DNA of 64,000 nt, from positions 4,047,744 to 4,111,743 of the forward strand of contig OY970289.1 of the NCBI GenBank assembly GCA_963716135.1, in the 5' to 3' direction. This DNA comes from Pirellulales bacterium (GTDB taxonomy: Bacteria; Planctomycetota; Planctomycetia; Pirellulales; JADZDJ01). Each line of letters begins with the position of its first letter. Position 1 is the first letter of the stretch. This document shows positions 25,027-57,195 of this stretch, one piece after another. The position numbers and the translations under genes are program-made. A model generated the notes under the pieces. That model had not been told where the DNA came from. It worked only from the letters and a program-made list of their open reading frames with translations, and ran no database searches.

Positions 25027-26584
25027 TCATAGTTCGATTTTCCTCCGCACCTCCTGAGCCGCGGTGCTCGTGGTGATCGAAGCTGGTCGAGCGCGCCCGG
25101 TCGCCCAACTTCGCAAGCGCTGCAGCTCTTCGCTCATGGTCCGCGAAAGCGGCACGGTTTCGCGGAGACTAGCTTCCACAATCTCGCTGTTCAGCTTGGC
25201 CTGTTTGCTGAATGCGTCGAACAAGGCCGAGACGACGGCCTCCTCGATCTCCGCGCCGTTGAAACCCTCACTCGCCACCGCCAGCGCCGCCAAATCGAAC
25301 TCGCGCGGATCACGACCGCGCTTGGCGAGATGGATCGCAAATACATCGCGCCGCTCCTGCTCGTTCGGCAGATCGACGAAAAATATTTCGTCCAAGCGAC
25401 CCTTACGCAATAGCTCCGGCGGAAGATGGCTGATGTTGTTCGCCGTGGCGGCCAAAAATACCGGCGCGGTTTTTTCCGAAAGCCACGTCAGCAGCGTGCC
25501 GAACACGCGGGCCGAGGTGCCGCCGTCGCTGCCGCCCGACGCGGTGGCCCCGGCCAAAGCTTTGTCGATTTCATCGCACCACAGGATGCAGGGCGCCACG
25601 CTTTCGGCAATCTGCACGGCTCGCCGCATGTTCTCCTCGCTGGAACCGACCAGACTGCTGAACATCCGGCCGACGTCGAACCGCAACAGCGGCAGCTTCC
25701 ACAAGTTCGCAATCGCCTTGACGCACAAACTCTTCCCGCAGCCTTGAACCCCCAGCAGCATCACGCCGCGCGGCGAAGGCAAACCGAATCGCGCCGCCCG
25801 GTCGGAAAAGGCGATGCTGCGCTTAATCAGCCACTGCTTAAGGTTTTCCAGTCCGGCCACGTGGTTCATTTTTTCCGTGGTCTCGTAATATTCCAGCAGG
25901 CCGCTTTTGCGGATGATTTGCTGCTTCTCGCTGAACACGATGCTCACGTCATCCGAGCTGAGCTTGCCATCCATCACTAGGGTCTTGGCAAACACGTTTT
26001 CGGCTTCCTTCAGCGTCAGGCCCTTGGCGGCATTGAGCAATCGTTCCCGGCCATCCGAGTCCATGTCGATTGTAATCTTGGCCTTGCCCTGCACGTCTTC
26101 GATGATGCGATCCAACAGCACTCCGAAATCCTCAACCGAGGGCAATCCGAAATCGATCACTGTCACGTCCTTGCTCAACTCCGGAGCGATCTGCATCAGC
26201 GGACTGGAGATGACGATCGTTTTATAAGTGTCGCGCAGCAGGTGCGCCGCGTCGCGCAACCGGCGGATCACCGTCAGGTTGCAACGTTCGCCTTCCGTAA
26301 AGGGGTGAAAGTCTTTGAACAGATAAATCGCCGGCTCCATTTGCGCCAACACCGCGTCGAGCGCCGCCAGCGGGTCCGACGTGTTGCTGCTGCCCATCTT
26401 GTTGCGCGACGGTTCGGTGCCGGCCTTCACAATGCCATCGGTGATCGTCCAAATGAAAAGATTCTTTTCCCGCCGCTGGGCGATCTCGCGCAAGCATCGC
26501 TCCAGCCGCTCTTCTTCCCAAGTCGTTACGTAGATAATCGGGTATCGCGCGGATCAGGATTTCCAATTCCTGCCAGGCCGACAT
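25027..26584 (-). CDS. AAA+ ATPase (Ycf46/CDC48-like single AAA module), apparent 1-nt frameshift near 26548
   Basis: Walker A GVQGCGKS, Walker B ILWCDEID, sensor/Arg-finger region. The N-terminal MSAWQELEILIRA is in another frame (ORF 26222..26584) and joins to RYPIIYVTTWEEERLERCLREIAQRREKNLFIW when one base is restored. Confidence 0.85.
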
Positions 26585-50530: not shown

Positions 50531-50545
50531 TAGGCGATACTACTC

Positions 50546-50636
50546 GGAAGGTGGTCCGCGTCTTGGTGGCGCAGCGGTCTTTAAAACCGCTGGAGGACCC
50601 GGTTTACACCGGCGGGTTTGATTCCCACGCCTTCCG
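50546..50636 (+). tRNA. non-canonical class II (long variable arm) tRNA-like gene, apparent anticodon UUA (would read the UAA stop), 8-bp acceptor stem; allo-tRNA/tRNA-Sec-like architecture
   Basis: By-eye fold: acceptor GGAAGGTG/CGCCTTCC (8 bp), anticodon stem CAGCGGT/ACCGCTG with 7-nt loop CTTTAAA, variable arm CCGG-TTTACA-CCGG, T-arm GGG-TTTGATT-CCC, discriminator G, then a T-run. Not verified with tRNAscan-SE. Confidence 0.55.
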
Positions 50637-50714
50637 TTTTTGCAGTTTAGGGCAAAATTACAGAAAACGCCAGTGAAATTACGAAACTAATTCTTTTTGC
50701 AATCGGTGCGCCCG

Positions 50715-52746: not shown

Positions 52747-53235
52747 AGTGCTACCCCTCAGATTTTAAGCGTAATTGGGCGGGTGGTGTTACAGACTAAC
52801 ACGGCTGTTACGCGTGCAAAGGGCATTTGCTTAACTTTTTTCGGCATTTCTGCATTCGTAAACGAAGGCAATTTGCTGTCATCGGCTTATGCCCGCCTGT
52901 GCGCTTCTAGCGGGACAGTGCCCAGATCCGCCCCGCAAACTCGGGCACATCCGAGTCGTGATAGATCTGTAATTCTTATGAAATGGGATCGCAAGCAACG
53001 ATACCTGCGCGGTCATCACGGTTTAGAAATGCGCGACATGATCGCGATGCCGGGTTCAGGAACTAAATTTCTTTCACTCCTGCGCCATAAATCACGGACG
53101 CGGCTTAGCTAGGCGCTTCCGCTTCCTTCTGGCATCGGCCCCGGCGCAGCTTGCCGAGCTGCCTTTCGGGGCATCCCGATGACGGCCTGCATGCTCGCAG
53201 GTCGTCTTTCTTCCTCTTAGCCTGAGGAGACAGCC

Positions 53236-53897: not shown

Positions 53898-54012
53898 CTG
53901 GTACCTCGTGCTTTGGCGGCTGTTGCTGTCGGAGCGTTCTCTAGAACGTTTTTACCCAGGCGGTACTGCGCAGCATGCGCCACCGCCGCCACTCAAAAGA
54001 AAGGATTTTGCC

Positions 54013-54195
54013 ATGACCCAGGTCGAGCTGGAACGCGAAGTGGCACAGCACACCGGCGAATCAGTCTGCACGATTCACCGGCGGGGCTTCAGTGTTGCCC
54101 AACCGCATTACCCACCGCCGCTAGTGGTCGATTGGGATCGGCTGGAGGCCGAGCGGCATGGGATGGCCAGGGACCGCAAGGATTCAGCCCGCTGA
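54013..54195 (+). CDS. small (60-aa) protein, paralogue of 56962..57150
   Basis: [26 protein letters not shown]...[15 protein letters not shown] shares T-Q-(V/I), VxQxTGxSV and PPxVVDWxxLxAxR with the ORF at 56962. It lies directly upstream of the Ubl gene. Confidence 0.45.
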
Positions 54196-54259
54196 TTCGG
54201 CTCTTTGTCAGCAAGCGATGCAACTTACTAACTTCCTTTTTCGAAAATCGGAGGCCTGC

Positions 54260-54478
54260 ATGAAGATTTTGTTCATTAACAACGACGGCGGCGGCTTTGC
54301 CGACTACATCGACGTGCCTGCGGGAATCACCGTGGCGACACTCTTCCAAGAGCGGATTCCGCACGGCAAGCCGCAGGACTTCTTGATCCGCGTCAACCGC
54401 CAGCCAGTGGCGGCCGACTATGTGCTGCAGGAAGGGGATCGCTGCAGCTGCAGCCCCACCAAGATCCAAGGTGCCTGA
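54260..54478 (+). CDS. ubiquitin-like beta-grasp protein (ThiS/MoaD-like), C-terminus ...KIQGA
   Basis: 72 aa: [11 protein letters not shown]...[13 protein letters not shown]...[32 protein letters not shown]. ThiS-like pattern (NG..., G.TV..L, VN...V......L.DGD) with a penultimate Gly. Confidence 0.65.
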
Positions 54479-54561
54479 AAACATTCATTTGAGACCTGCC
54501 TCGGGGCCTGTCGCGCTTCGACGCGGCGGCCCCGCTTTTTTGTATCCCGACGGAGATTGAT

Positions 54562-55601
54562 ATGCCGATTTACCACAAACCGTTTTGGCGCGCAGCAGGC
54601 CTCGTCTGCGGGCAGCTGGCCAAAGCTGCCGCCGGAAGCCAAACCTTCACCTTGCCAACTTCCCAGTGGCAGACACTGGTGAAACTGGTGCGCGATATCC
54701 AGCTGGCCGGCGATCGTGGCTGGCGCCACGCAGCCCGCCGCCGGCACGAGGAATTGCTATCGGAGTTGGACTATTTTGAGCGGTCGATTTCGCAGCTGGT
54801 CGATCAGCGGCGGGACACACGGCCGGCAAACGTGCTGGCTAGCGACACCGAGGTGTACCGAGACCTGGTGGCCTTGGACGGCGAGTTTGCCGAGGTCCGC
54901 TGCGATTTTGAAGAGCAGGTCATCGCCGTTACCACCGATCCGGTGGTGCTGGATGGGATCGACCTAGGCCGTTTCCAGATCCGACTCAATTGGCAGCAGC
55001 TTGGAGATGCCCAGCCCTACACGATCGTGGCGTTGGATCCCAATCCGGCGGCAGCCAACTCCGCCGTCACTCATCCCCATGTGAGCGACGAGATCCTGTG
55101 TGAAGGAGACGGGCGCCGGACGATTCAGGCTGCGCTGCGCAGGGGCGGCTGGCGGATTTCTTTACGATCGTCGATCGCTTGCTGCGCACGTACGCCGAGG
55201 GGAGGGCCTACGTCGAATTGAACAACTGGAACGGCGTCACCTGCCACGATTGCGGCTGCGTGGTTTCGGAAGATGAACGCTGGTGCTGCGAGCGCTGTGA
55301 GGAGACGATCTGCTGCGATTGCGGCGGTTGCTGCCAGCATTGCGATCGGACCTACTGCAGCGGTTGTTCTGCCGAGTGTCCGCTGTGCGAGGGGAGTTGC
55401 TGTGCTAGTTGCTTGGAACGTTGCCCATCGTGTGGGCGGCGTGTTTGTCCCGATTGCCTGTTACCGGACGATAACCACTGCACAAGGTGCCATGAAGAAC
55501 TACAACCACAAACTGAATCTGATGCCCAAGCCGAGCCGGCCCTCCAACCCGAGCCTGCGGTTCACGCCGACGGCCTGGGCCAAGCTGCTGTATCTGCGTG
55601 A
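54562..55601 (+). CDS. E2-like (UBC-fold) protein fused to a C-terminal Cys-rich multi-CxxC domain; apparent 1-nt frameshift near 55139
   Basis: [15 protein letters not shown] gives an HPx motif with a Cys 8 residues downstream, as in E2 enzymes and Prok-E2 families. After the join (..[27 protein letters not shown]..) there is an 85-aa region with about 9 CxxC pairs ([42 protein letters not shown]). The 3' end overlaps the JAB gene by about 110 nt. Confidence 0.65.
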
Positions 55602-56190
55602 CTGTGGTGAAACCGAAGTGGGCGGCTTCGGGATTGCCGAAACGGAGGATCTATTGCTGGTCACTGATTTGACGTTGGTCGACCAGGTCTGCTCCTTTGC
55701 CACGGTAGCGTTTGACGACGCGGCCGTGGCGGATTTGTTTGACGAGCAGGTGGATCTGGGATTGCGCCCGGCACAGTTCGCCCGAATCTGGGCGCATACT
55801 CATCCCGGCGATTCAGCCGATCCAAGTTCCGTCGATGAGGAAACGTTTGGGCGCGTATTTGGCGGAACCGATTGGGCGGTGATGTTCATTCTGGCCCGCG
55901 GCGGAGAAACCTACGCTCGCTTGCGATTCAACAACGGCCCCGGCGGCGCTATCGAACTGCCGGTTCAGGTGGATTACTCGCAGCCTTTTGATGCCAGTGA
56001 CCATGAGGCTTGGGAGGCTGAATATCTGGCGAAGGTGCAGCAGAAAATTTGGCCGCCTGCGGAGAAGGCGCAATTGGATGGAAGCGCCGCCAAAGGCGAT
56101 GTCCACGAAGAAGAGCAGGTGGCCGCGGCGGTTTCGGAATTTTCTGATTGGAACCCTTACTGGATGGAGGATGATCCCTGGTATGACTGA
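55492..56190 (+). CDS. JAB/MPN (JAMM) metallopeptidase
   Basis: EVGGFGIAE ... [23 protein letters not shown] gives E...HxHx7Sx2D, the JAMM zinc site. Confidence 0.8.
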
Positions 56191-56839
56191 CCAACTAAAT
56201 CGTTTTGTACGCCAGGCGGAACTGGTACCGATGGACCGACTGGCCCAGGTATCGGCCAGCGTAATCGGCTGCGGCGCCATCGGCCGCCAGGTGGCGCTGC
56301 AGTTGGCTTCAATTGGAATTCGCAAGCTGCAACTGATCGATTTCGACGAAGTGGATGCGACCAACGTCACGACCCAAGGCTACCTGCACGCTGAGATTGG
56401 TATGCCCAAAGTCGTGGCGCTGGCTGCGGCAGTGACGAGGATCGATCCGGAGATCGAGATCCAACAGGTTGACGAGCGGTTTCGCCCAAAGATACCGGTG
56501 GAAGATGCCGTGTTCTGCTGCGTCGATTCGATCGACACACGGGCGGCGATCTGGCGCGCGGTTCAGGGGCGATGCCGGTTTTGGGCGGATGGGCGGATGC
56601 TGGGTGAAGTGATCCGCATTCTGGTTGCAGCAGATCCAGAAGGGCGGCGGCACTACCCGTCGACCTTGTTTGCCGCGGCTGAAGCTCAGCAGGGCAGCTG
56701 TACCGCCCGTAGCACGATCTATTCCGCCAGCGTTGCGGCCGGATTTATGGTCCATCAATTCACGCGCTGGCTTCGGGGACTGCCGGTGGATAAAGACGTT
56801 TCTTTGAATCTGCTGGCCAGTGAGCTGGCCGTGGTCTGA
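56183..56839 (+). CDS. E1-like ThiF-family adenylyltransferase (minimal, 218 aa)
   Basis: [19 protein letters not shown] (GxGxxG), [15 protein letters not shown] (ThiF DxD..N motif). The start ATG overlaps the JAB stop (ATGACTGA). Confidence 0.8.
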
Positions 56840-56961
56840 CAGGCAACGCTGGCCGCAGTTCTGGCCGGATCGCAGGTTCGCCTTCGGCCGCTGAGCGCGC
56901 ACGGCTGAGCAACGATCGTACCAAAATTCAACACGCACCCAACTATTTCGGAGGGAAGGAT

Positions 56962-57150
56962 ATGACTGCTACTCAAATCAAGCGCACCGTATCACAAGTC
57001 ACTGGAAAATCAGTGCCTGAATGCGTCCCTCGCGGCTGCTACCTGGTGGGCACACTCAGAGCAGACGATCGCTCCGATACAGCTGATCGGCCGCCGCAGG
57101 TCGTCGATTGGAACGAACTCGATGCCTGGCGCTACAAGTTGACTGAGTAA
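56962..57150 (+). CDS. small (62-aa) protein, paralogue of 54013..54195
   Basis: GGAGGGAAGG RBS; MTATQIKRTVSQVTGKSV...RPPQVVDWNELDAWRYKL. It is the last gene before the operon terminator. Confidence 0.5.
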   Translation: MTATQIKRTVSQVTGKSVPECVPRGCYLVGTLRADDRSDTADRPPQVVDWNELDAWRYKLTE

Positions 57151-57158
57151 AGCACCAA

Positions 57159-57195
57159 GACGCCCAAGTACCACCAGTGCTTGGGTGTCTTTTTT
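57159..57195 (+). terminator. rho-independent terminator of the Ubl operon
   Basis: GACGCCCAAG-N11-CTTGGGTGTC followed by TTTTTT. Confidence 0.7.

Follow-up and report, generated by a model that had tools for sequence, protein, structure and literature searches.

The question addressed here is what two short genes are doing at either end of a gene cassette for conjugation of a ubiquitin-like protein (Ubl) in a planctomycete, and whether their arrangement is a designed one. The genes, which we call smA and smB, lie in contig OY970289.1 of a Pirellulales genome (assembly GCA_963716135.1), within a stretch of 64,000 nucleotides (positions 4,047,744 to 4,111,743) that was analysed as a whole and is referred to as the window. 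Between them are the genes for the Ubl, for an E2-like protein with a zinc module (E2-Zn), for a JAB peptidase and for an E1. Both small genes are real members of a previously unnamed family of planctomycete mobile elements, smA being the gene that regularly leads the cassette and smB a diverged extra copy from another subclade of lead genes, now behind the E1 gene. The bacterial Ubl systems (Bil, Bub and the Cap2/Cap3 of CBASS) are under active study, with the trigger that switches them on largely unknown. The small gene proves to be a conserved and very common fifth gene of the planctomycete Ubl-E2(Zn)-JAB-E1 cassette, and it heads an unrelated nuclease module too, which makes it a candidate for mobile-element control of interchangeable cargo. 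Its product is short and tractable for testing.

Both open reading frames (ORFs) are on the forward strand exactly where the initial annotation had placed them (coordinates in Table 1), and the motifs it listed as common to the pair, an MT..Q start, V(A/S)QxTG(E/K)SV and PPxVVDW(D/N)xL, are all there. When formally aligned the two proteins are homologous (BLASTP, 33% identity, E=1e-8). A profile of the pair, run with HMMER against 1.8 billion representative proteins, found 352 representatives at E<=1e-3, nearly all of 55-75 aa and with the match beginning at residue 1; one match of 1265 aa is to an unrelated repeat protein. A word-indexed homologue search with smB matched smB only. The family alignment has 118 members. 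Neither ORF was used in building the hidden Markov model (HMM) of the family, and the scores against it are 80.7 bits (E=3e-27) for smA and 53.3 bits (E=1e-18) for smB, the best of 1000 shuffled sequences reaching 6.2 bits.

The similarity is at the protein level. The only stretch shared by the smA and smB DNA is of 41 nt, 71% identical and covering the PPxVVDW codons, and because the likeness is confined to it, a duplicated non-coding repeat, which had been raised as a possible explanation, fails to account for the similarity of the two genes. Between smA and smB the synonymous sites are saturated, the proportions of synonymous (pS) and nonsynonymous (pN) differences being 0.74 and 0.41. To the lead genes of loci L018, L079 and L082 smA is 58-63% identical (pN 0.26, pS about 0.8), and comparisons between relatives likewise give saturated synonymous sites (pS 0.6-0.84) with pN of only 0.26-0.37. 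Such conservation of protein sequence over hundreds of sequences with saturated synonymous sites is what leads us to treat this as a conserved coding family.

The consensus of the 118 members is MTQxELxRAVAxATGESxxTIRRRGFSL, then a variable acidic proline-rich linker, then PxVVDWDxLxxxR, and residues T14, G15, E16, G25, F26, D40, W41 and D42 are each conserved in at least 90% of them. Every hallmark (TGE, I21, GF and DWD) is kept in smA. The proteins are acidic, with a mean net charge of -4.2, the linker alone contributing -3.6 and some members reaching -14, and they are poor in lysine: 73 of the 118 have none, and lysine as a fraction of lysine plus arginine, K/(K+R), is 0.066 for the family and 0.40 for the long ORFs of the window. 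The initial annotation had contrasted an smA free of lysine with an smB that has it, which does not stand, as smA has K56, in the unconserved tail, and smB has K7, K16 and K59, which go with its wider loss of the family hallmarks. It had recognised no family, and no library gives one. A Pfam scan of the 118 members gave nothing recurrent and no family for smA or smB at E<=1, PADLOC and NCBIfam gave no match for either, PHROGs gave none for them or for one further member tested, and the source names, where present, are "hypothetical protein".

Linkage to the cassette was counted in a phylum sample of 401 genomes, the members of which are related so that the counts are not of independent events. 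The family HMM matches 45 places, spread over 22 genomes, of which 17 are among the 20 genomes of a sister family of the same class (f31). The JAB of the cassette has matches at 29 places in 14 genomes. Four of the 29 cassettes are at contig ends and were excluded, and in 22 of the 25 that are assessable (88%) there is a small gene 0.2-0.9 kb 5' of the Ubl gene on the same strand. Conservation beside homologous operons, which the initial annotation had proposed looking for, is thus found. The cassettes without a small gene are the second cassette of the window's genome (L017) and both of those in genome G433 (L124, L125). Looked at from the side of the small gene the linkage is much looser, for a cassette adjoins only 23 of the 45, nine genomes have a small gene without a cassette, and three closed genomes (G135, G213 and G309) have a small gene with neither JAB nor Ubl found by the queries used. 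About half of the family heads a cargo of clamp-like protein and Cas4-like nuclease, or no cargo, and the supposition that the small genes are specific to Ubl operons has to be given up. The linkage is one-directional: a chromosomal or proviral cassette is nearly always with a small gene, and the small gene is independent of the cassette. Among viral contigs in IMG/VR, a small gene is absent within 6 kb in 12 of the 13 assessable cassette contigs, some of them of 120-190 kb. Two of the IMG/VR contigs examined (L133 and L137, among L127-L140) have an AAA ATPase homologue 4-5 kb 3' of the E1 gene.

The small gene sits where the constant genes of an element give way to variable cargo, often no more than 15-60 nt past a terminator-like hairpin. 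In f31 there is an array of AAA ATPase (Cdc48/PAN-type, phrog_8638), g318, g81 and small gene, and the cargo that follows is either the Ubl cassette or a clamp-like protein (phrog_947) with g154 and a Cas4-like PD-(D/E)XK nuclease. At L076 two genes mark the end of the f31 array, a convergent excisionase-like one and an integrase-like one, both named by inspection of the sequence and not by family search, and L127, an IMG/VR provirus, has the full AAA-g318-g81-small-Ubl-E2Zn-JAB-E1 array together with integrases; a search of that provirus record for an HK97 capsid gave no match. At L060:13900-15200, on the reverse strand, is a second AAA-g318-g81-small array, behind which are a gene of 97 aa, a Ubl gene by itself and a membrane ORF of 74 aa, with no E2, JAB or E1 after them.

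Among the homologous cassettes in relatives of the window's genome, six (L018, L019, L020, L022, L023 and L028) have a single family member 5' of the Ubl gene, and the small gene is 3' of E1 instead in L026 and L027. At L020:800-1640 an additional gene of about 260 aa separates the small gene from Ubl. Metagenome contigs of this lineage have the order coiled-coil membrane gene, small gene, Ubl, E2Zn, JAB, E1, and homologues of the coiled-coil membrane gene are directly 5' of the small gene or of the Ubl gene in L079, L080, L082 and L017, which makes it a conserved upstream neighbour of the small gene within the lineage. Its product matches no Pfam family, and the idea that it is a relative of g318 was rejected as there is no similarity. 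The islands concerned carry integrase genes, insertion sequence (IS) elements or SIR2/HerA/UvrD genes. In one of them (L080:2306-8027) SIR2_2, DUF87 (HerA-like) and UvrD-helicase genes and an integrase fragment are just 5' of the cassette, a defence-island setting. The L017 cassette (G000:C1:3366000-3369000) has the order Ubl-E2Zn-JAB-E1 with a coiled-coil membrane gene 5', and its E1 is 67% identical to that of the window. There are thus as many small genes as cassettes in the genome, two of each, and both small genes are at the cassette in the window.

With regard to the presence of two copies, the bracketing reported in the initial annotation is real in that smA and smB do flank Ubl-E2-JAB-E1 here, but it is not a conserved design: among more than 35 cassettes examined the two-copy state is found in this window only. 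Nor did the pair arise by local duplication, as the two genes are in different subclades. In a maximum-likelihood tree of 36 context-labelled family members smA clusters with the lead genes of L018, L079 and L082, and smB is sister to the lead gene of L080 (support 99/85) in a starred clade with L028; both of these relatives of smB are lead genes 5' of Ubl. The two-copy bracket is a local accident, and the idea that it was designed is corrected accordingly. On the same tree members labelled "Ubl" and "clamp" are intermixed, the well-supported branches forcing at least four and at least two changes respectively.

The second copy has changed a great deal. Its terminal branch is of length 2.06 with a median of 0.27, it is the sole member of its 50% cluster, and it has the substitutions E16K, I21C, F26C and D42N together with prolines P19 and P23 in helix 2. 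The hallmarks therefore read TGK, C21, GC and DWN, so that four positions fail, yet smB is a clear homologue. A frameshift as the cause of the odd helix 2 was rejected, because the DNA aligns without indels and the differences are point substitutions. The ratio of nonsynonymous to synonymous substitution rates (dN/dS) for smB against its nearest relatives is about 0.33-0.39, and 0.22 among those relatives. We conclude that smB is probably either a relic or a protein with a changed role, a relic alone having somewhat less than an even chance; perhaps it is a second lead gene left over from another cassette that is drifting or switching role.

The structure of smA was predicted with AlphaFold2 (AF2) from the 118-sequence alignment, giving a mean predicted local distance difference test (pLDDT) score of 83.6, with helices at 3-14, 18-24 and 41-54 and an extended segment at 25-40. 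Residues 3-24 form a predicted helix-turn-helix (HTH) hairpin at pLDDT 91-96. The HTH-like stretch noted in the initial annotation is thus borne out as a predicted shape but it matches no HTH family: over the 118 members the HTH models give one HTH_33 match at 0.028 and one Sigma70_r4_2 match at 0.19. Motif resemblances to the N-terminus of HU and to excisionases (HTH_17) were given no support by Pfam. Foldseek with the AF2 model found nothing in the PDB at E<=0.001, the weak rows being HU, ArdK and other HTH proteins at E>=2.6 and template-modelling (TM) scores of 0.3-0.4, and VIA-align against 48,161 chains gave top Z scores of 2.3 (MazE) and 2.0 (VapB), which are at chance level; both are antitoxin chains of the kind that wraps round a partner. 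The ESM Atlas gave only unnamed planctomycete clusters (0.86-0.87). The look of the model is that of a protein in two parts that depends on partners, rather than that of a compact domain.

We suggest, with a probability of about 0.4, that the small protein serves the mobile element as a regulator or adaptor made of two parts, and that it gates whichever cargo follows its gene. Each part would have its own partner, the N-terminal helical hairpin one and the DWD helix the other. The hairpin is joined to the PxVVDWDxLxxxR helix by an acidic proline-rich linker of variable length, and the partners would more likely be proteins than DNA. The suggestion of a gate is made because of the two-part build together with the position at the junction of constant genes and exchangeable cargo, and protein contacts are favoured over DNA binding because the family is negatively charged overall, has acidic and aromatic residues that do not vary, is non-globular in the model and contains few lysines. 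There are parallels in SspB-type adaptors and in the C-terminal arms of MazE and VapB, in which a folded or helical head is followed by a flexible variable linker and a short conserved C-terminal binding motif. The likeness to such tethering adaptors and type II antitoxins is architectural only, the VIA Z scores of 2.0-2.3 being at chance level, and no toxin family matches were found among the neighbours of the small gene (g81, Ubl and the coiled-coil membrane protein).

Several points weigh against this suggestion. The sequence and model comparisons yielded no partner for the small protein, either nucleic acid or protein. The pattern A-x3-G-x-S-x2-T-I-x-R fits the classical HTH signature and R22-R24 are basic, so that DNA or RNA binding is possible. 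The 88% cassette linkage, the co-transcription with Ubl ahead of an internal terminator and the lysine-poor E2 and E1 also fit a dedicated subunit of the conjugation cascade. Descent alone can preserve gene order near the end of an element, and the sampled genomes are interrelated, so that the counts are not independent.

The first alternative is such a cascade subunit, non-catalytic and dedicated to the Ubl: either a Ubl-binding adaptor or E3-like specificity factor, with VVDWDxL as a SUMO-interacting motif (SIM) or as the W-x-x-L of an LC3-interacting region (LIR), or an inhibitor of E1 or E2 until triggered. The small gene is carried by 22 of the 25 chromosomal or proviral cassettes, small gene and cassette move together in the absence of AAA-g318-g81 in the lineage of the window, and smA and Ubl are together upstream of the internal terminator. 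Lysine content also divides the cassette in a way that is consistent with this, K/(K+R) being 0.14 and 0.00 for the two frames of E2 and 0.17 for E1, which are thus lysine-poor as the small family is, and 0.43 for Ubl and 0.47 for JAB, which are not. A LIR has an acidic run and then W-x-x-L, as does the VVDWDxL of the small protein, and the single match in a profile search of PDB sequences was to the UBA domain of USP5, through the GF and VDW motifs, the GF loop and VDW helix of the family aligning to it at E=1.2 only. However the UBA-like or TS-N idea found no support in hhalign against 29 planctomycete EF-Ts N-terminal domains, which gave a probability of 0.1. About half of the family is beside other cargo, with both contexts intermixed on the tree, and the closed genomes G135, G213 and G309 have a small gene where Ubl and JAB were not found. 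Phage cassettes, 12 of the 13 assessable, and three bacterial cassettes lack a small gene.

There is also a model that bears on direct binding. The small gene and Ubl of L022 share a frame, with two TGA codons between them, and as a proxy for co-folding the in-frame read-through (small protein, 21-residue spacer and Ubl, with TGA read as Gly) was modelled from a mixed alignment. The Ubl part of the AF2 model is a beta-grasp at pLDDT 88-97. The small part has the same secondary structure as it has alone: VVD does not become a strand and the pLDDT is no higher, so that no structure is induced. This model, made without predicted aligned error (PAE), speaks weakly against direct binding to the Ubl. 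Taking all this together we consider a dedicated cascade subunit to be unlikely. The lysine counts are 3 in 333 aa for E2-Zn, 4 in 218 aa for E1 and 0 for g81 (L067:7227-7457), and the depletion in these three may be an avoidance of self-modification.

The second alternative is a plain nucleic-acid-binding regulator, either a minimal HTH repressor or activator of a cargo promoter, or an N-like antiterminator acting on the hairpins that precede the small gene itself and on those that separate Ubl from E2. The HTH signature and the predicted helix-turn-helix at 3-24 would fit this, as would the arginine-rich second helix and the position as first gene of the unit directly 3' of terminator-like hairpins. 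Such hairpins are a recurrent feature. At many loci the end of a GC-rich hairpin that has a T-run is found 15-75 nt 5' of the ATG of the small gene, a strict rule finding a terminator-like hairpin there in 16 of 33 loci with more visible by eye, and in 12 of 30 cassettes there is a terminator-like hairpin 3' of the Ubl gene. Ten f31 loci (L067:7472-7571 and nine related ones) have an element in which a CGGGGCGG motif, conserved between them, precedes a hairpin whose stem is maintained by compensatory base changes, with a T-rich tail after it. This element lies 20-70 nt 5' of the small gene and could be a terminator, an attenuator or a protein-binding site.

There is a precedent for such a regulator in CapH/CapP, described in the literature on Bil and Bub, which are found with 15% of type II Bil operons and with many other defence systems. 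In both cases a small gene stands first in its operon and recurs before unrelated cargo, some Ubl systems included, but the small family has no XRE-type HTH match and no partner protease, and its members are acidic and non-globular. The charge of -4.2, falling to -14 in some members, is against nucleic-acid binding, as is an invariant Glu at an HTH position that is usually hydrophobic. The second helix has only 7 residues, the Pfam HTH models give single chance-level matches only among the 118 members, and neither Foldseek nor VIA gave a significant match to a compact three-helix fold. A common operator 5' of the small genes was also rejected: the palindrome of the window, CGTTCT-CT-AGAACG, is not kept in relatives, and no operator-like palindrome common to several lineages was found upstream of small genes. 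We put the chance of a plain nucleic-acid binder as low as that of the cascade subunit.

In a more far-reaching reading, which we consider quite improbable, the family would be a new kind of modular "cargo gate" in planctomycete proviruses. The small protein, as a sensor or adaptor in two parts or else as an N-like antiterminator, would license whichever defence-type module follows, be it Ubl conjugation or clamp plus nuclease. If true, the Ubl cassette depends on the small gene in chromosomal elements and lytic phages dispense with it. That the small protein is a Ubl substrate or decoy is less likely than that it is a regulator or adaptor. It is very improbable that the ORFs are non-functional, whether as chance ORFs over a duplicated non-coding repeat or as decayed remnants, for although smB has lost E16, I21, F26 and D42, has a branch eight times the median and is alone in its 50% cluster, the family and smA are conserved as proteins with saturated synonymous sites, both genes have ribosome-binding sites in a Shine-Dalgarno-like purine-rich stretch 8-14 nt upstream of the ATG, the DNA repeat is no longer than 41 nt at 71%, and smB retains an open frame, a strong stretch of this kind and a dN/dS of about 0.35.

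With regard to known systems, the cassette in the window has the gene order Ubl-E2-JAB-E1 of BilABCD (types I and II; 10.1101/2023.09.26.559546, 10.1101/2023.09.04.556158), and its Ubl ends in Gly-Ala as does the type II BilA of E. aridi. It differs in that the E1 is a bare ThiF domain of 218 aa and not a multidomain protein with a catalytic-Cys domain, and in that the E2 carries a zinc module, matches no Prok-E2 model and is not of Bil or CEHH type. The accounts of Bil and Bub that were consulted describe no fifth gene of 60 aa, as the initial annotation had said of Bil-type systems, PADLOC has no match for it, and the small family occurs also away from Ubl genes. The features of the locus are given in Table 1.

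Table 1. Features of the Ubl cassette and its flanks, by position in the window
Feature	Position	Strand	Basis and remarks
Terminator-like hairpin	53181..53206	+	Consensus scan: 10-bp stem, 7 GC pairs, T-rich tail; just 5' of coiled-coil membrane gene
Lipoprotein-like coiled-coil protein, one transmembrane helix	53361..53897	+	Listed ORF starts 53256
Two short hairpins, then TTTTT	53913..53953	+	RNAfold scan, -20 kcal/mol with T-run; ends 59 nt before smA start
smA, 60 aa, canonical family member, lead gene of cassette	54013..54195	+	Family HMM, context
Ubl, 72 aa, ends ..QGA	54260..54478	+	Weak ThiS match, motifs, conserved order
Intrinsic-terminator-like hairpin, 13-bp stem and U6	54502..54542	+	RNA fold; between Ubl and E2 genes
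E2-like protein (HPHV...LCEG motif) fused to Cys-rich zinc module	54562..55601	+	Two frames: 54562-55221 and 55179-55601
JAB/JAMM peptidase	55492..56190	+	Weak Prok-JAB and PADLOC JAB matches, motifs, conserved order
Minimal E1, 218 aa, ThiF adenylation domain only	56183..56839	+	Pfam ThiF E=2e-26, residues 17-200
smB, 62 aa, strongly diverged second family member, operon tail	56962..57150	+	Family HMM
Strong intrinsic terminator, ends the unit	57157..57191 (or to 57197)	+	15-bp stem then TTTT; 7 nt past smB stop

The first hairpin probably marks the start of the transcription unit, and the pair of hairpins before smA is the local version of the terminator-like element that precedes many family members. 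The hairpin between Ubl and E2 would yield more Ubl and smA transcript than transcript for the enzymes. Of the four cassette proteins only E1 has a significant family match, the other three being called on weak matches, motifs and gene order; identity between cassettes is 50-79% for Ubl and 55-68% for JAB. E2-Zn is a single ORF of 345 aa in L079, and of 345-347 aa in relatives (L079, L082), and even the intact L079 form matched no model in Pfam (E<=1) or NCBIfam (E<=0.01). In the window a shift of 1 nt, in a run of G/C near 55135-55150, is needed to join its two halves. The frame break may be a genuine frameshift or may come from a homopolymer error, the assembly being a single contig and 91% complete. 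The L017 cassette of the same genome likewise has its E2-Zn halves in different frames.

Elsewhere in the window, at 25027-26532 on the reverse strand, is a gene for an AAA ATPase of 488 aa, which over its full length shares 34% identity with the Cdc48/PAN-type AAA ATPase at the start of the f31 arrays; g318 and g81 are not adjacent to it. Closer to the cassette, at 50545-50637, ARAGORN calls a tRNA of 93 nt with anticodon tta ("tRNA-Stop").

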